Of a stretch of DNA of 64,000 nucleotides, positions 8,219-50,428 are shown piece by piece. Source of the stretch: Mobula hypostoma (Eukaryota); contig NC_086101.1 in NCBI RefSeq assembly GCF_963921235.1, positions 130,696,001-130,760,000 on the forward strand. The letters run 5' to 3'. The translations under genes and the position numbers were made by a program. The notes beneath the pieces are model-generated. The model saw nothing but the letters and a program-made list of their open reading frames with translations. It was not told the DNA's origin and ran no database searches. Numbering within the stretch: the first letter of the stretch is position 1; every line of letters begins with the position of its first letter.

Positions 8219-9688
8219 TTATGCATTGTATGTTTTTTCTTATTCATTTGTTAATCATTCTATTAATGTCCCACTCATATACTGTTCATCCCTACAGCTT
8301 TCGGGAACAATTTCTGAATGTTCACCCTCTGGATGAAGCCATTTCTCCTGAGTTCCCTTACAGTGTTGTTGCTGCTTATTAATGAAACTGCCTTTACATT
8401 CTCCCACAAGTAGGAACTCATGCTACAAGGGTCCAATGAATTTGTTCTTTGGGGATAATGGATGAGTGTTACTGGCAGTGATACATTCACACTCACTTGA
8501 TGCAAGCAAATATCTCTTCACTTTATCTGCATCTAGTTGGATAAGCCCTTATAGTTTTAAGAAGCTGCATCAGATCACATCTTGGTTATTCCTTCTTGGA
8601 GAGATGCAGAGTTGGTAAAGTTACTTCCTCACAGTCTGAGAGGTATGGGTTCACTCCTGACCTTGAGTGGTAAAGTTACTGTCTCAGTCTGAAAGGCCTG
8701 GGTTCACTCCTGATCCTCATTTGTAAAGTTACTGTCTGAGAGGCCTGAATTCACTCCTGACTTTGAGGAGTAAATTCAGGCCTCTCAGATAGCAACTTTA
8801 CCAGGCCTGGTAAAGGCCTGGGTTCACTCCTGAACTTGAGTGGTAAAACTACTGTTTCACAGTATGACAGATAGAGGTTCTTGAGTGCTATCCCTATCAA
8901 GTTAGCATGCTCTCAATATGAATGCTTCAGTTTCGTCCTGCATTCCAAACACATGCAGGTTGGTAAGTAAACTGGCTACTGTAAGTTGCCCCTAGTATGT
9001 AGGTTAAGTGGTAGAATCTTGTGGGCGGGAATTGAATTGACTTTATTGCTTACATCCTACTAATGCATGAGTAAAAATCTTTACGTTACGTCTTGTTACA
9101 TACCTCATGGATATCTTGTGTTTGTTTTATAAGGATGATGTAACGGTCTTGCGGAGGTCACATGATGTAATTTTCCCGCCGATGTGAGGTCACGTGATAA
9201 CCTGTTCTCACCAGGTATATAAGGGTAGACCCCTGGTGACGCAGTTAGTTTTCAGTTTAAATCGTCAGTGAGATACTCCACTATGCTGCATATTTGCCTT
9301 ATGATGCAGTTTAATCTTAAAACGGAGTTTTCCTATCTATTGTAAGGTACAGAAGTGTTGGGCCGGCAGTTTCACCAATAGCTGCCAGATTTGTTGATGT
9401 ACCTTTTCAGTAGTATTGGACAGTGAAGACGGGAACCTGAAAGAGTCGTTTGGCAGTTTTGGAGAGGATCGACAATTATTGAACTCATTCAAGAAAGTGA
9501 TCTGCATGAGATAACCTATGCTAAAGCGGTAAAGGTTGTGCAGTATCTAGTCTATTCTACAGGGAAAAAAAGTCAGTGCCTTTAAAGTCGCAAACAACAG
9601 GAATTCTGCAGATGCTGGAAATTCAAGCAACACACATCAAAGTTGCTGGTGAACACAGCAGGCCAGGCAGCATCTCTATGAAGAGGTA

Positions 9689-9726
9689 CAGTTGACGTTT
9701 CGGGCCGAGACCCTTCGTCAGGACTA
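9689..9726 (-). ncRNA. Minimal type I hammerhead ribozyme in Penelope pLTR
   Basis: UAGUC-CUGACGA-AGGGUCUCGGCCC-GAAAC-GUC-AACUG; core intact, one stem I mismatch. Confidence 0.75.
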
Positions 9727-10911
9727 ACTGAAGGAAGAGCTAGTAAGAGATTTGAAAGTGGGAGGGGGAGGGGGAGATCCAAAATGATAGGAGAAGACAG
9801 GAGGGGGAGGGAAGGAGCCAAGAGTTGGACAGGTGATTGGCAAAGGGGATATGAGAGGATCATGGGACAGGATGTCTGGGGAGAAAGACAAAGGGGGGGG
9901 GAACCCAGAGGATGGGCAAGGGGTATAGTCAGAGGGACAGAGGGAGAAAAAGAGAGAGAGTGTATAAAAATAAATAACGGATGGGGTACGAGGGGGAGGT
10001 GGGGCATTAGCAGAAGTTAGAGAAGTCGATGTTCATGCCATCAGGTTGGAGGCTACCCAGACGGAATATAAGGTGTTGTTCCTCCAACCTGAGTGTGGCT
10101 TCATCTTTACAGTAGAGGAGGCTGTGGATAGACATGTCAGAATGGGAATGGGATGTGGAATTAAAATGCGTAGTCACTGGGAGATCCTGCTTTCTCTGGT
10201 GGACAGAGCATAGATGTTCAGCAAAGTGGTCTCCCAGTCTGCGTCGGGTCTCGCCAATATATTCAAGGCCACATAGGGAGCACCGGACGCAGTATATCAC
10301 CCCAGCTGACTCACAGGTGAAGTGTCGCCTCACCTGGAAGGACTGTCTGGGGCCCTGAATGGTGGTAAGGGAGGAAGTGTAAGGGCATGTGTAGCACTTG
10401 TTCCGCTTACAAGGATAAGTGCCAGGAGGGAGATCAGTGCGGAGGGATGGGGGGACGAATGGACAAGGGAATCACGTAGGAAGCGATCCCTGTGGAAAGC
10501 AGAGTGGGGGAGGGAAAGATGTGCTTAGTGGTGGGATCCCGTTGGAGGTGGCGGAAGTTACGGAGAATATGTTGGACCCGGAGGCTGGTGGGGTTGTAGG
10601 TAAGGACCAGGGGAACCCTATTCTTAGTGGGGTGGTGGAAGGATGGAGTGAGAGCAGATGTACGTGAAATGGGGGAGATGTGTTTGAGAGCAGAGTTGAT
10701 AGTGGAGGAAGGGAAGCCCCTTTCTTTAAAAAAGTAGGACATCTCCCTCGTCCTGGAATGAAAAGCCTCGTCCTGAGAGCAGATGCGGCGGAGATGGAGG
10801 GATTGCGAGAAGGGGATGGCATTTTTGCAAGAGACAGGGTGAGAAGAGGAATAGTCCAGATAGCCCCCTCCCCCTCCCACTTTCAAATCTCTTACTAACT
10901 CTTCCTTCATT

Positions 10912-36227: not shown

Positions 36228-37510
36228 AGCCTACTGACTCTCACAGCTATCTGGATTATTCCTCTTTTCACCCTGTCTCTTGCAAAAACGCCATCCCCTT
36301 CTCGCAATTCCTCCGTCTCCGCCGCATCTGCTCTCAGGATGAGGTTTTTCATTCTAGGACGACGGAGATGTCTTCCTTTTTTAAAGGAAGGGGCTTCTCT
36401 TCCTCCACTATCAACTCTGCTCTTAAACGCATCTCCCCCATTTCACGTACATCTGCTCTCACTCCATCCTCCCACCACCCCACTAGGAATAGGGTTCCCC
36501 TGGTCCTCACCTACCACCCCACCAGCCTCCGGGTCCAACATATTATTCTCCGTAACTTCCGCCACCTCCAACGGGATCCCACCACTAAGCACATCTTTCC
36601 CTCCCCCCCTCTCTCTGCATTCCGCAGGGATCGCTCCCTACGCAACTCCCTTGTCCATTCGTTCCCCCCCCCCATCCCTCCCCACTGATCTCCCTACTGG
36701 CACTTATCCGTGTAAGCGGAACAAGTGCTACACATGCCCTTACACTTCCTCCCTTACCACCATTCAGGGCCCTAAACAGTCCTTCCAGGTGAGGCAACAC
36801 TTCACCTGTGAGTCGACTGGGGTGATATACTGTGTCCGGTGCTCCCGATGTGGCCTTTCATATATTGGCGAGACCCGACGCAGACTGGGAGACCGTTTTG
36901 CTGAACATCTACGCTCTGTCCGCCAGAGAAAGCAGGATCTCCCAGTGGCCACACATTTTAATTCCACATCCCATTCCCATTCTGACATGTCTATCCACGG
37001 CCTCCTCTACTGTAAAGATGAAGCCACACTCAGGTTGGAGGAACAACACCTTATATTCTGTCTGGGTAGCCTCCAACCTGATGGCATGAACATCGACTTC
37101 TCTAACTTCCGCTAAGGCCCCACCTCCCCCTCGTACCCCATCTGTTACTTATTTTTATGCACACATTCTTTCTCTCACTCTCCTTTTTCTCCCTCTGTCC
37201 CTCTGAATATACCTCTTGCCCATCCTCTGAGTCCCGTCCCCCCCCCCCGTCTTTCTTCCCGGACCTCCTGTCCCATGATCCTCTCGTATCCCCTTTTGCC
37301 TATCACCTGTCCAGCTCTTGGCTCTATCCCTCCCCCTCCTGTCTTCTCCTATCATTTTGCATCTCCCCCTCCCCCTCCAGCTTTCAAATCCCCTACTCAC
37401 TCTTCCTTCAGTTAGTCCTGACGAAGGGTCTCGGCCTGAAACGTTGACTGCACCTCTTCCTACAGATGCTGCCTGGCCTGCTGCGTTCACCAGCAACTTT
37501 GATGTGTGTT
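36228..37510 (+). mobile_element. Penelope-like element, 5'-truncated
   Basis: RT thumb, CxxC and GIY-YIG (GVIYCVRCSRCGLSYIGETRRRLGDRFAEH) ending 37115; exact 12-bp TSD actttgaattta. Confidence 0.92.
37413..37450 (+). ncRNA. Minimal type I hammerhead ribozyme, intact
   Basis: UAGUC-CUGACGA-AGGGUCUCGGCCU-GAAAC-GUU-GACUG; stem I fully paired. Confidence 0.8.
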
Positions 37511-38172
37511 ACTTTGAATTTATAGTGGATTACATGTTCAAATGACTAAAGTTGCATAAAAAGTTAGTGGGATGAGTGACAAGGCTTGGTCATATAATAA
37601 GTTTTCTGAGGGGTCTGAAGGGAGGAGAGTGCTAAGCAGCTGTAGAGGTTTAAGAAGGCAATTTCAGAGCTCAGGATTTGGCAGCTTAAAGCACAGGTGA
37701 TGATGGTGAAAAGAACAAAATTCAGCGATGCAAAAGGAAGCTATGACTGGAGAAGTACAGAAAGGGCTGCAGAGCTGCCAGGATTACAGAGATAAGGACA
37801 AGGAGGGATTTGAGAACAAGGCTGAGAACTTCAGATTTAACTCAGTTTTATTTCAGTTTGTCCTTTTTTGATCCTTTAATTATCTTGCAAACCATTTGGC
37901 TTAATTCTACCTTCACAGTTTGCTGATACTGACTAGCTGCTACTCTCATGTTTCAAATCTATGTACATGTAGTTCTCTAGAACGTAGTCACATATGTTTT
38001 CAAGAAACCTTATGTTATATAATGTGTCCATACAAAACAAATTACAGTTGTCTTCAAAGCACTATTTTCAGTAGGTTATTGTAATTGGCTATAACCAATG
38101 TGGCCAATGTAATGCAAATAGAATTGCCTAATCCACCAGTGGAATTCTAACCAATTGACATTATAGACACGG

Positions 38173-44062: not shown

Positions 44063-45971
44063 ATATGATTAATTATGTGGTTTTGTCAGTTTTTTCAGTC
44101 TTGGTTTGTCCTGTGTTTTGTGATATCACACCGGAGGAAATAATGTATCATTTCTTAATGCATGTATTACTAAATGACAATAAAAGGGGACTACGTGTCT
44201 TCATAATCTAATAACAGGGTTGTTGTGGTAGGAGATTTTAATTTCCCAAATATTGATTGGCATGTCTCTAGAGCGAGGGGTTTAGATGGGGTAGAGTTTG
44301 TTAGGTGTGTTCAAGAAAGTTTCTTGACACAATATGTAGATAATTCTTCAAGAGGAGAGGCTGTACTTGATCTGGTATTGGGAAATGAACCTGGTCAGGT
44401 GTCAGATCTCCCAGTGGAAGAGCATTTTGGAGATAGTGATCATAATTCTACCTCCTTTACCATAGCATTGGAGAGGGATAGGAACAGACAAGTTAGGAAA
44501 GTGTTTAATTGGAATAAGGGGAGATATGAGGCTATCAGGCAAGAATTTGGAAGCATAAATTGGGAACAGATGTTCTCAAGGAAAAGTACAGAAGAGATGT
44601 GGCAAATGTTCAGGGGATATTTGCGTGGAGTTCTGCATAGGTACTGTACGTTCCAATGAGACAGGGAAAGGATGGTAGAGTACAAAGGATGGTGTACAAA
44701 GGCTGTTGTAAATCTAATCAAGAAGAAAAGAGGAGCTTACCAAAGGTTCAAAAAACTAGGTAATGAGAGAGATCTAGAAGATTATAAGGCTAGCAAGAAG
44801 GAGCTCAAAAAAGAAAATAGGAGAGCCAGAAGGGGCCATGAGAAGGCCATGGCAAACAGGATTAAGGAAAATCCCAAGGCATTCTACGAGTATGTGAAGA
44901 GCAAGAGGATAAGATGTGACATAATAGGACCAATCAAGTGTGACAATGGAAAAGTGTGTATGGATCCAGAGGAGATAGCAGATGTATTTAATGAGTACTT
45001 TGCTTCAGTATTCACTACAGAAAAGGATCTTGGCGATTGTAGGGATGACTTGCAGTGGACTGAAAAGCTTGAGCATGTAGATATTAAGAAAGAGGATGTA
45101 CTGGAACTTCTGGAAAGCATCAAGTTGGATAAGTCACTGGGACCAGATGAGATGTGCCCCAGGTTACTGTGGGAGGTGAGGGAAGAGATTGCTGAGCCTC
45201 TGGCAATGATCTTTGCATCATCAGTGGGGAAGGGGAGGTTCTGGAAAATTGGAGGATTGTGGATGTTTTTCCATTATTCAAGAAAGGGAGTAGAGATAGC
45301 GCAGGAAATTATAGACCAGTGCGTCTTACTTCAGTGGTTGGTCAGCATGGCTTTGTGAAAGGCAAGTCGTGCCTTACAAGCCTGATTGAATTTTTTGAGG
45401 ATGTGACTGAACACATTGATGAAGGTAGAGCAGTAGATGTAGTGTATATGGATTTCAGCAAGGCAACTGATAAGGTACCCCATGAAAGGCTTACTGAGAA
45501 AGTAAGGAGGCATGGGATCTGAGGGGATATTACTTTGTGGATCCAGAAATGGCTTGCCCACAGAAGGCAAAGTGTGGTTGTAAATGGGTTGTATTCCGCA
45601 TGGAGGTCAGTGACCAGTGGTGTGCCTCAGGTATCTGTTCTGGGACCCAAACTCTTTTTGATTTTTATAAGTGACCTGGATGAAGATGTGGAGGGATGGG
45701 TTAGTAAATTTGCTGATGACACAAAGGTTGGAGGTGTTGGGGATAGTAGCATTTAATGTGAGAGGCACACTTTTTATGCAGAGATTAAGGGTGCCTGGAA
45801 TGTGCACCTGGGGTGGTTGTAGGGGAAGATACATGAGGGACTTTTAAGAGAGGCTTGGATAGGCACCTGAATGTGTGGAAAATGGAGGGATATGGACATT
45901 GTGTAGGCATAAGGGATTAATTTAGTGGACATTTGATTATTATTTATTTGGTTCAGCACAACATTGTGGAC

Positions 45972-46172
45972 TGTGGTGATATCAGGTGCAATGATGTGCC
46001 AGTAGATGATTGGACAGAGCACTGAGCATGCGCGGGGCTTGCCGGTATGTTCCAGCACATGGCGTGATTAAGACGTGTTTGTTTATTACTGTAAATAAAA
46101 GTTCTCTAATTCTTCCAGAATATGATTCTTTACTGTTAACCCATGGTACGCTAAAATAGAAGAAGTACAACA
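45972..46172 (+). repeat. 5' LTR
   Basis: TG...CA; 13 differences in 201 bp from the 3' LTR by eye. Confidence 0.95.
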
Positions 46173-46187
46173 TGGTGTCAGGAGTGG
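46173..46187 (+). promoter_or_regulatory. Primer binding site, tRNA-Leu
   Basis: TGGTGTCAGGAGTGG, complementary to the 3' end of vertebrate tRNA-Leu(CAG) (CCACUCCUGACACCA). Confidence 0.9.
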
Positions 46188-46276
46188 TTCTGGAACAATA
46201 ATACGGGAGAATCGAGAATCAAGAATTGAAGATAATCAAAAAAAAGAGGAATAAATTTCGAACTGCAAACGGTAAT

Positions 46277-47106
46277 ATGGAAGGTTTACTACCGCCACCA
46301 AAACTTCAGCTGACTGGGAACATAGAGGAGAATTGGAGGATCTTCGAGCAACAGTTTGAACTGTACTTATCGGCAATCGATTATGAAGAGAAATGAAAAA
46401 AAACAAAGCTGCACTTTTGCTCCATGTAATCAGAAATGACGCAGTAGAGGTATACAATAATTTTGTCTTTGAAGATGGAGATAATTTCAATTTGAAGTCA
46501 ATAATGGACAGATTTGAAGTATTTTGTACACCTAAGTGTAATGTAACGTCTGAACGAAATAAATTCTTCACATGTGAGCAAAGAGCTATTGAAACAATTC
46601 ATCAGTATGTTACTGAATTAAGAAAGCATAGTAGAACATGCGAGTTTGGATTGCTCACGGATTCTCTGATTAAAGATAAGAATAGTTTGTGGCATTCGTG
46701 ATAATGCTCTAAGAGAAAGGCTGTTGAAAGAGCAAGATTTAAATTTTGAAAAAGCTTTCGCACTCTACGAAGCTTCTGAGACTGTGAAGTTGCATGCTGA
46801 AGAGCTTTTTGTTGAAAACTGCAATGTAACCACTGTAAAAAAAGCGCGAATATATCAAGAAATATAATATTACGTCGACAAAACCGATGGTGAGCAAGAT
46901 GGCATTTGAAAACATAGTCATGTGATCGCTGTGCGCGGGAACACCATCCTAATCAGTGTTTCACATATGGCAAAATTTGCTACAACTGTGGTAAGATTAA
47001 TCATTTTTCATGCTGCTGTAGAAATAGAAAGAAGGAAAATAAAATGAAACAAGTAAATGCAGTGATTGAAGATGAACGAGAGGAATTTTATATAGATGCT
47101 CTTTGT
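46277..47106 (+). pseudogene. gag (capsid plus two zinc knuckles), frameshifted
   Basis: MEGLLPPPKLQLTGNIEENWRIFEQQFELYL...ERNKFF...YVTELR...CEFG...CDRCAREH...CYNCGKINHFSCCC. Confidence 0.9.
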
Positions 47107-47303
47107 GCAAATGCTGACATGGAGAGTATAAAAGCAGTAACTGCAGTGTCTGAGACGACCAAACAGGAGGCAATTGATGATGTGAAAAAGCAGTGGCAGG
47201 AAGAGACTGCTTCAATGCAAGCGATAATGAGTCGCTGAGAGAATATGAGATTCAGTTTAATCACCGTCTAGAGCAAGAACGCTCACAGCGGGCACAGTAT
47301 AAG
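47107..47303 (+). pseudogene. RABEP1: Captured fragment of Rabaptin-5 N-terminal coiled coil
   Basis: ADMESIKAVTAVSETTKQEAIDDVKKQWQEETASMQAIM / SLREYEIQFNHRLEQERSQRAQYK vs recalled human AEMENIKAIATVSENTKQEAIDEVKRQWREEVASLQAVM / TVRDYEHQFHLRLEQERTQWAQYR. Confidence 0.88.
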
Positions 47304-47469
47304 CAAGAAGTGAAAGCACATAATGGAATTGAGAAGTTTTATTGAAATGATGAAGTCTCAGCATAAAAAAGAGATTACATAGTTAATGAATAAGTTAGAT
47401 GAAGAAAAGAAGATTAGTACTTCATTAAAAATAGAAGTGAAAGGATTTAGGAAAGATCTAGTCCAAACA
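47304..47469 (+). pseudogene. SH3KBP1: Captured C-terminal coiled coil of CIN85/CD2AP family
   Basis: ELRSFIEMMKSQHKKEIT*LMNKLDEEKKISTSLKIEVKGFRKDL vs recalled human CIN85 [45 protein letters not shown]; CD2AP origin not excluded. Confidence 0.75.
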
Positions 47470-47919
47470 GAAGCAGGGAAACAGATTGCTGAGGAGGATA
47501 GCGTGAACTGCTTACCTGAAATTCCAGATTCTAACCTGGAGACATGTGAGAGTGTACCAAAAAGTTTAATTGAGATACATAAAGAAAAGCTTAAAGTAGG
47601 AAAGAAGAAGAAAAAGAAGAAGCAGAAGAAGAGTATGGCTCAGACAGCGATGAGCCAACTTCAGAGTTTCCGTTAGCTGATTTGTTTATTGGTTAATGTT
47701 GTTATTTGTTTTTTTTAAGGGAAAGAAAATGTGATTCTTCAGAGATTCATTTAACTGATACAGATGAGACAAAACATGTAAATAATAACAAGGAAACACA
47801 AGATATGTGTGTACCACTTAGGAGGTCTACTTGTGTTCATAAACCCACAGAGAGACTGATTGAGACTTGTTGAATTATGTCTTTGCTTTGATTAATGTTG
47901 TTATTTATTTTTTCTTTTT

Positions 47920-47932
47920 AAGGAAGGGAAGA
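47920..47932 (+). promoter_or_regulatory. Polypurine tract
   Basis: aaggaagggaaga immediately before the 3' LTR. Confidence 0.9.
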
Positions 47933-48133
47933 TGTGGTGATATCAGGTGCAATGATGTGACAGTACATGATTGGACAGAGCACTGAGCATGTGTGGGGCT
48001 TGCCAGTATGTCCCAGCACATGGCGTGATTAAGAAGTGTTTGTTTATTACTGTAAATAAAAGTTGTCTAATTCTTCCAGAATATGATTCTTTACTGTTAA
48101 CCCATGGTACGTTCAAATAGAAGAAATTTAACA
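47933..48133 (+). repeat. 3' LTR
   Basis: Direct repeat of 45972-46172. Confidence 0.95.
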
Positions 48134-50428
48134 GTAGATCAAAAGGCTTGTTCCTGTCCAGTACTGTTCTATGTTCTATGCTCTACTTTATCTTGGCTTT
48201 ATGACTCCATGAACTTCCTATTGAATGTGATTCCTCACAACTCAAAGATTATCTATGGTGGCATTAGATCAACAGCTTTCTTTACATTTAACCATGTGAT
48301 TTGGTCCAATTAGTGTTGTTATCCACATTAACCATCATTACAAATATATTTATAATTTCAAATCATTCGTCTGTACACTGGGTCTACTGACAAATGATGA
48401 TAGCAAGCTGACACCCAGTTCGTCAAACATAAAATAAATGGATTTCCAGCCATCAACCCTTGCAGAGCTCACTGCTTCATCTGCACAACCAATTAAATCT
48501 GGGGAAGCCCACAGAAATTCAAGGAGCTATATTTTGAAAATCACATGCAGAGAGACAGTAAAACTGCATGACTTAGTGTCCTCCACAGTACACAATTAGT
48601 CGATTCTGTTGCTGATCAGTATCTTAGCTTGCACATTATTCTTTAATTCTGAAATTTTCAAGCTTGCAGAAAAATATAGGGTATCTGTTTGAAATGGTTT
48701 TACTCTTTGAGATAATCAAAGGAAAGACCAGGCAATGGTTTAAACTGTCCAAGCAATTGATTTTATGAACATTATAAAGTACAAGAAATTTTATTGCTGA
48801 AAGAATTAATTCGAAGTGCACCTTAAATTTCACAAGAGTAATTATTTAGTGTCAGGAGACCAGAGGTTCATAATCCATTAGGAATATAAATGATATTCCT
48901 CTAGACTCCCTCTGAACACTCATGGACATTCAGTGTTTTTTTTCACTTTAGAAGAGCTGGTCTTGCTGAATAAGATCAAGTTTATCTGCTAAATGATGTT
49001 GCTTGTTGTGGATCTCAAAGAAAGATGCTGACAAATATCTCTCAGTCCTTGTGCAACTAACTTGTCTTCTCTGTAATACTTGTTCTTGGGTTCATTTAAA
49101 ATGTATTATGGTATTTCAGTCACTGATGTCATCTGTCAGGTTTTGCTACCAAACATGTCAATTGCCAACAATGAACTAATTTTTAATATTTAACATGGTG
49201 GGAGATGAAGCCGATATGTCAGTTGTGGCTTAATTGTTAGGGTACCGAGGAATGTACTTTTTTTCTGGTGAGAAGTAAATTCAAGAATCTGCCTGCTCTC
49301 TGAAATGGATATAAAAGATTTAGTGGTACGAGTACAAAGAAGAACAGTTAGTTATCCCTGGTGTTTTGGCCAATAAACCACTTCAAATAAGCACATGTTG
49401 GAAATAGGACATTTTAAAATGGAATGCCTCACTACTTGAAGTCGGCGTTGCGTTCAGAAGGTTGTAATGTGCCTTGTGGGAAGAGGAGGCACTCTTTCCC
49501 AAGGCTGCATTTAGCCTCATGAGTTCTGTAGAACGGCTAAAAGCAGAGAAGTCAGGATGAGAAAGGGGCAGAAAATTAAAATGATCAATGAGGGCTAAGT
49601 ACAACTACTGCAGCAAGTACTCAGGTCAGGTAGTCTTCATGGAGAAATAAACTGAGTGTTTCAGGTTATCAGAACCTGTCATCTATTAGAGCGGTTAACT
49701 CTAATTTCTTCTCCAAGATGCTGTCTGACCTGCTGAGTAGTTTCACTATTTTTTATTTTTAAGTCAGATCTGCAGCCTCTTTAGTATTTAGCCTTTTGAT
49801 TAAACTGGCAGGCAACTGGAAAGTCAAAGACACACCTGTGTGGAACTTTTCTATGCTTGGTGCACATGATGTGGTCTCCTCTTCATTACAGAAACCACAC
49901 AAAGATTGGGTTACAGCTTTGTAGGAAATCTCCTGGAACATTTGCAACTTTGCCCTATTCAGATGAGTGTCATCAAATGAAAGGTTGACTCTTTTTCTCT
50001 CTCTACAGAGGCTATCTGACCTGCTGAGTATTTCAGGAATTTCTGGTTTTTATTCTGTTAATAAGAATATTTCAAAATTTTTTCATTATTTACATGTTTA
50101 AAGAAACATAAGGGATTACATCACACACTGTTCGAGACTTCATGTTTGATAAGATATAATTTTAGTGTAACTGATAAGGGAAAAAATCTAACCACTATGT
50201 TCTTAGTGTTGGATCTATTGCCTCCTGTGTAACATATTTCTCTCTCTCTCATAGAAACTGAGTTCTTTGTATACTCCTGATTTGTTTCTCATCAAATATA
50301 AATTGCACCCTTGTATTTAATCTCTATGGCTCAATTTTGCATGTGTTCACTTTACCTTTTTCTACCATGAGCCTGGAACATTTCTTTCTCTAGATAGGAT
50401 GAAGCAAAGGGTGCAATAACGGAACTGT

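Follow-up and report, generated by a model that had tools for sequence, protein, structure and literature searches.

The window, by which we mean the whole 64,000-nucleotide stretch of Mobula hypostoma DNA analysed here, contains a Ty3/Gypsy element that spans 45972-48133 (2162 nt), is bounded by two LTRs and lacks the PR/RT/RNase H/integrase core. Its features are the following:

45972..46172, + strand: 5′ LTR (TG...CA), 201 nt, a direct repeat of 47933-48133 with 93.5% identity
46173..46187, + strand: primer-binding site complementing the 3′ end of tRNA-Leu(CAG), for which this genome has matching genes
46277..47106, + strand: Ty3/Gypsy gag, capsid-like part and zinc knuckles, the ORF broken by stops and frameshifts
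47042..47345, + strand: near-identical tract of about 300 nt, with 3 differences from the copy at G000:C12:128.06 Mb, flanks differing by about 9-10%
47107..47315, + strand: rabep1 cargo, the 3′ part of a 204-nt exon spliced to the 5′ part of the next exon, with a 4-nt deletion at about 47229
47305..47455, + strand: cargo from the C-terminal coiled coil of sh3kbp1 (CIN85), three spliced exons that meet at 47366/7 and near 47430
47456..47469, + strand: short remnant of the integrase C-terminal tail
47470..47653, + strand: cargo from slu7, three spliced exons that meet at 47490/1 and about 47574
47654..47932, + strand: integrase-tail and 3′ UTR sequence, partly duplicated, with a first polypurine tract/LTR start near 47715-47735
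47920-47932, + strand: polypurine tract before the 3′ LTR
47933..48133, + strand: 3′ LTR, direct repeat of the 5′ LTR

The TG...CA LTRs, the tRNA primer-binding site and the polypurine tract are hallmarks of Ty3/Gypsy elements. The gag is 86% identical to that of two RT-bearing copies (L189/L195), and its zf-CCHC and PNMA matches are weak and below the cut-off. The cargo region holds five exon-exon junctions from three host genes in 550 nt. Stops and frameshifts are found in gag and in all three cargos, and this copy of what is a non-autonomous Ty3/Gypsy LTR retrotransposon is dead. Its target duplication has decayed, with four of the six bases of a 6-nt duplication kept. It seems to have inserted into the 3′ end of a LINE that we take to be CR1-like (45500-45971 and 48134-48180), the flanks of which rejoin. 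Elsewhere in the window, 9625-10864 and 36246-37514 form an inverted repeat pair of about 1.2 kb, 91-94% complementary, whose arms lie 25 kb from each other and probably are young copies of a single repeat, and a short array of four units of roughly 53 nt lies at 8629-8854. On three small contigs (G000:C116, C186 and C192), repeated matches to the tRNA-Leu(CAG) 3′ motif suggest tRNA gene arrays.

A preliminary description of this DNA had recognised a RABEP1-derived cargo and proposed its capture from spliced RNA. The translation of 47107-47229 matches Rabaptin (Pfam PF03528, E 6.6e-16), the sole family matched by that peptide, and among unrelated coiled coils nothing comparable was found, the best PDB match having an E value of 0.2. 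With an X at the break, the peptide is identical to a mammal-like RABEP1 (P0073, not a human record) at 42/64 residues, agreeing with the roughly 42/63 that the preliminary description had given for the human protein, to an electric-ray RABEP1 at 56/64 and to this genome's own rabep1 at 59/64. The host gene was located on G000:C71 through Pfam searches, and 200 kb of that contig was compared with the window. Positions 47107-47230 match C71 53174469-53174346 (94%) and 47229-47315 match 53165280-53165194 (92%). These host exons, which we take to be numbers 3 and 4 by human numbering, are 204 and 161 nt long with canonical AG/GT boundaries, and the 9.06-kb intron between them is missing from the cargo; the rabep1 piece therefore derives from spliced mRNA. 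The same abutment of exon matches is seen in the window and in 59/59 locus rows, some loci being listed twice. Mapping the exon boundaries on the species' own locus thus bears out the earlier proposal: the segment covers two exons and not one, and the host boundary falls after the Lys of MK|E, near K122/E123, where it had been placed.

The small deletion that the same description had noted at this junction is real, with a length of 4 nt, but as a mark of capture it is ruled out, being carried by only 2 of 68 unique copies. The other carrier (L090/L002, at G000:C12:128.06 Mb) lies on the opposite strand, 2.7 Mb from the window copy. The two share a tract of about 300 nt that is 99% identical, deletion included, and are about 90% alike outside it, so that the deletion is a late lesion that was probably spread by gene conversion. 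Judging from this pattern, the tract at 47042-47345 is a likely product of non-allelic gene conversion between old copies.

RABEP1 was correctly named, but it is only the first of three captured genes. Host sh3kbp1 exons lie on C18, and two of their junctions are spanned by the window cargo, which has a 2-nt deletion close to its start; three are spanned in a sister family, a copy of which has a longer SH3KBP1 cargo with 95% identity to a named ray SH3KBP1. Host slu7 lies on C21, and the window's slu7 cargo covers two exon junctions. The RABEP1 and SH3KBP1 cargos differ from their host genes by about 5%, almost without near-fixed differences, whereas the SLU7 cargo differs by about 10%, with 11 near-fixed differences. 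This extra divergence may mean that SLU7 was captured earlier, that the region evolves faster or that the donor was foreign. Among the matches classified, no SLU7-only or less diverged SLU7 family was evident, the best non-host slu7 matches being 88-93%, and no further cargo genes were seen among the best 30 integrase-tail loci (two of them with RABEP1) or the best 30 gag loci.

When joins are compared with real parent copies, each contains a short word exactly common to both partners, the length of which varies with the parent's own mutations: 6 nt at pol>RABEP1, 8 nt at RABEP1>IN, 7 nt at SH3KBP1>IN, 4 nt at each SLU7 end, 4 nt at RABEP1>SH3KBP1, 7 nt at SH3KBP1>RABEP1, 4 nt at gag>RABEP1, 6 nt at PR>RABEP1 and, by eye in a copy shifted by one base, about 8 nt at pol>SH3KBP1. 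The long RABEP1 cargo begins 1 nt inside its exon, at the 6-nt microhomology with pol. For the 5′ join we therefore rule out that an element transcript was spliced to the acceptor of the rabep1 exon, no donor site being involved. In single-cargo forms, the whole region between a point just ahead of RT and the integrase tail has given way to the host piece. The cargo thus replaces internal ORFs instead of interrupting them, the RT/RNase H/integrase core being missing between the joins, and both LTRs are kept.

This arrangement bears on a DNA-level or LINE route, in which a LINE-made processed pseudogene would have entered an already integrated Gypsy element by insertion or recombination. Such a pseudogene would likewise have no introns, and the window is rich in LINE-like repeats (of families that we name presumptively). 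However, the replacement of pol alone largely refutes this route; the fragments are internal coding pieces whose ends show no poly(A), LINE hallmarks or target-site duplication, microhomology is present at every join, and no freestanding retrocopy was found among the loci examined. We consider it very improbable. With high confidence, we conclude that the enzyme core was replaced by pieces of spliced rabep1, sh3kbp1 and slu7 mRNA, likely via RT template switching.

The element belongs to a large family, for which our copy counts are lower bounds drawn from best-matching, not random, loci. A Rabaptin profile search of the genome gave 264 candidates, 88 of which were scored; two were the host exons, leaving 86 RABEP1-bearing copies. 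An SH3KBP1-specific 65-mer yielded 234 candidates and a slu7 exon query 87, with 40 scored in each case, and at least 150 RT-bearing relatives were scored. Relatives match the Pfam families of RT, RNase H and integrase and bear the labels K02A2.6-like or Gypsy; the parent order is gag-PR-RT-RNase H-IN, and the window element is colinear with RT-bearing copies of this genome. Among 87 unique cargo loci, a sample biased towards best matches, 3 are RABEP1-only, 19 SH3KBP1-only, 33 two-gene and 32 three-gene forms. A cargo-free gag query returned 30 loci, of which 27 have the window's gag>RABEP1 join, two break off earlier and one is of the RT type. Dispersed copies share joins, pointing to further rounds of retroposition, and 5-nt target duplications are visible by eye at L097 and L098; every copy whose translation was read has stops or frameshifts. 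The sites that the family has reached number at least in the dozens and probably in the hundreds. Rare independent joins were also observed (L101/L065 at G000:C80:23.148 Mb, L099, L224 and L123), comprising another RABEP1>SH3KBP1 switch, other RABEP1 5′ truncations and an apparently longer 5′ SH3KBP1 piece.

Intermediate forms survive alongside the window's. In the RABEP1-only and SH3KBP1-only families pol is replaced at nearly the same ends, a further form has SH3KBP1 nested inside RABEP1, and the window's form has, in addition, lost the stretch between gag and RABEP1 and gained SLU7 within the integrase tail. Subfamilies with about 70-75% identity to the window element contain the single-cargo copies, whereas copies with two or three genes fall in the window's own subfamily (85-90% identical), which indicates that cargo moved between subfamilies. 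A sequence of events can be proposed. Reverse transcriptase in the particle would switch templates at short shared words and so capture a piece of host mRNA. RABEP1 and SH3KBP1 would have been captured separately first, as their nesting suggests, and co-packaged single-cargo elements could then have recombined into stacked chimeras. After the RABEP1/SH3KBP1 switch, deletions may have extended back to PR and then to gag; SLU7 would have entered the integrase tail, and helper elements would have copied the chimeras in trans to many sites. Three-gene copies have a gag composed of mosaic blocks, as would fit frequent co-packaging.

In the 33 of 54 three-gene copies that have both LTRs, the median identity of the pair is 91.3% (range 79-95%), and the LTR pairs of RT-bearing copies fall in the same range. 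The RABEP1 cargo differs from the host gene by a mean of 5.2%, with a single near-fixed synonymous difference, which places its capture shortly before amplification. The family's joins recur in predicted proteins that bear the labels Hemitrygon akajei (P0005, P0021) and Hypanus sabinus (P0054), and contigs from four organisms in four studies, from runs presumed to be RNA, bridge chimeric joins and attest presence only (X8 records 28 and 29; X5 records 14 and 15; X1 record 7; X6 record 21). Residues missing from the sawfish protein are common to the SH3KBP1 cargo and the proteins labelled Mobula and Hemitrygon; the cargo is without Hemitrygon's private changes and has a Glu codon where the genome's own gene has Asp. 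From these comparisons we infer that capture probably took place on the stingray stem, after the sawfish split, horizontal transfer being a possible alternative. Shared joins can serve as presence/absence markers for ray phylogeny. In two stingrays the chimeras are annotated as genes, one of them called 'rab GTPase-binding effector protein 1-like', and chimeric elements account for such spurious 'RABEP1-like' gene models in ray annotations.

The reading frame of the chimeras was then compared with that of gag-pol, in copies matching both anchors only (for example 19/31 and 12/33), one scored line covering two joins. At all 13 multi-copy joins the commonest form is in frame. At gag>RABEP1, 17 of 19 scored copies are in frame (31 copies in all), and at RABEP1>SH3KBP1, 33 of 33 (64 copies). 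Five SH3KBP1-only copies (4/12 of those scored at this join) share the loss of 1 nt immediately ahead of SH3KBP1>IN, which breaks the frame late in the ORF. A frameshift in gag common to the three-gene copies was also considered and is ruled out, the site being an A-run of variable length.

The same captures could have been joined in frame by mutational bias only, followed by neutral or small-size-driven spread. Among words shared by pol and the coding pieces of the three host genes, the in-frame share exceeds one third and rises with length (0.39 for 4-mers, 0.41-0.44 for 6-mers and 0.46-0.51 for 8-mers); joins often lie at look-alike codons, and the cargo shows no clear constraint. However, 13/13 in frame is improbable even at 0.51 each, 0.51^13 or about 1.6e-4 being the upper chance figure if the joins were independent, which the 13 are not fully, and pure internal deletions, with a null of about 0.40, are in frame as well. 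We regard bias acting alone as a possible but doubtful account.

Selection on the proteins themselves was evaluated by the nonsynonymous (N) and synonymous (S) changes in the three-gene copies (n=54). In the cargo, variants shared by 15-80% of copies number 9 N:4 S, compared with 268:46 for singletons (p 0.12), so that no clear constraint on its amino acids is seen, with low power. In the capsid part of gag, shared variants are 23 N:25 S and singletons 251:58 (p about 2e-6 to 3e-6); two-gene copies are without this signal (5 N:4 S, p 0.23). Alleles of the gag mosaic occur in more distant RT-bearing copies too, and the synonymous excess was thus possibly imported by recombination. Purifying selection on gag in cis is for this reason not accepted, even with the signal present.

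A useful Gag-cargo fusion, in which the RABEP1/CIN85 coiled coils aid capsid multimerisation or trafficking and basic SLU7 aids RNA binding or nuclear entry, might be read from two independent coiled-coil captures at nearly the same site after gag-PR, from a ratio of stacked to RABEP1-only forms of 65:3 among sampled loci (a biased sample), and from the richness of capsid-region shared variants in synonymous changes. Against this, shared plus near-fixed cargo changes in the three-gene copies are mostly nonsynonymous (18 N:8 S), the A+G-rich codons of coiled coils give microhomology to A+G-rich pol without selection, and the gag signal is confounded by recombination. Such a benefit appears improbable to us. 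A broader version also seems unlikely, if a little less so: a serial exon-stacking lineage of helper-dependent LTR elements, selected to keep one long Gag frame, in which every successful capture or deletion joined host coiled coils to Gag in frame, and whose translated Gag-RABEP1-CIN85-SLU7 products aided particle assembly, or at least did not disturb it, in genomes of the stingray lineage; if true, translated Gag-host fusions would be a germline counterpart of gag-onc transducing retroviruses.

The absence of clear cargo constraint, together with a gag signal possibly imported, favours a filter on translated RNA over a useful fusion protein. On balance we lean towards the view that a filter favoured the spread of variants with an open gag frame. 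The filter would act through translated RNA being more stable or better packaged, and the host peptides themselves look like passengers. In yeast Ty1, according to the part of that work available to us, translating and packaged RNA come from one pool and Gag is without cis-preference (PMC3945221), which makes a frame filter plausible, yet does not demonstrate it for the ray family. The in-frame bias opens a testable question, namely whether the RNA of a non-autonomous LTR element must be translated through in order to spread.

Several known systems resemble this family in part. In oncogene-transducing retroviruses, a spliced host mRNA takes the place of pol and continues the gag frame, and a helper is needed. 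Unlike these, the ray family has no env, was amplified only in the germline, gives no evidence of a phenotype and shows no evident selection on its cargo. TR-GAG elements of plants are gag-only and non-autonomous, with an LTR-gag-LTR structure of about 2.2 kb that is without RT and integrase; in contrast, ray gag continues into host cargo, and cis selection on it is not established. By the properties examined, the element is at once an LTR-mediated retrocopy and a non-autonomous Ty3/Gypsy element, and is not a functional retrogene, which would have an intact expressed ORF under purifying selection, whereas the cargo variants here are near neutral.

A literature search of open-access main texts found no paper on this family, on LTR gene capture in rays or sharks, or on the frame question, and the word 'shark' has 0 occurrences in the main text of Tan 2016 (PMC5131818). 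In the LTR-mediated retrocopies of that study, as described in the part of its text available to us, partial spliced mRNA likewise replaces part of an internal ORF, the elements retain their two LTRs, some chimeras combine several genes and the products are non-autonomous (PMC5131818). Microsimilarity at its switch points has a median of 6 bp, compared with 4-8 nt in the ray family, and frame was measured there relative to the parental protein, here relative to gag-pol. The same text describes the Drosophila cases as young and at few sites, 18 for nine retrocopies (PMC5131818), whereas at least 86 copies were scored in the ray family, which probably has hundreds, and in which, unlike those cases, cargo was exchanged between subfamilies only 70-75% alike and intermediates survive.

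Maize Bs1 is, as far as the available part of its description goes, the closest three-gene case, likewise an LTR element, whose hybrid ORF combines segments from three host genes (PMC13317346). Bs1 is reportedly transcribed, translated and possibly functional (PMC13317346), whereas the ray family belongs to a vertebrate, is decayed in all copies read and has a cargo without clear constraint. The mechanism is thus already known, and it is the scale and stacking in the ray family that are unusual. Published animal cases, in the portions of that literature available, are mostly single- or few-copy; in the ray, parent, single-, double- and triple-cargo forms coexist in high copy, so that exon shuffling by template switching can be traced stepwise.
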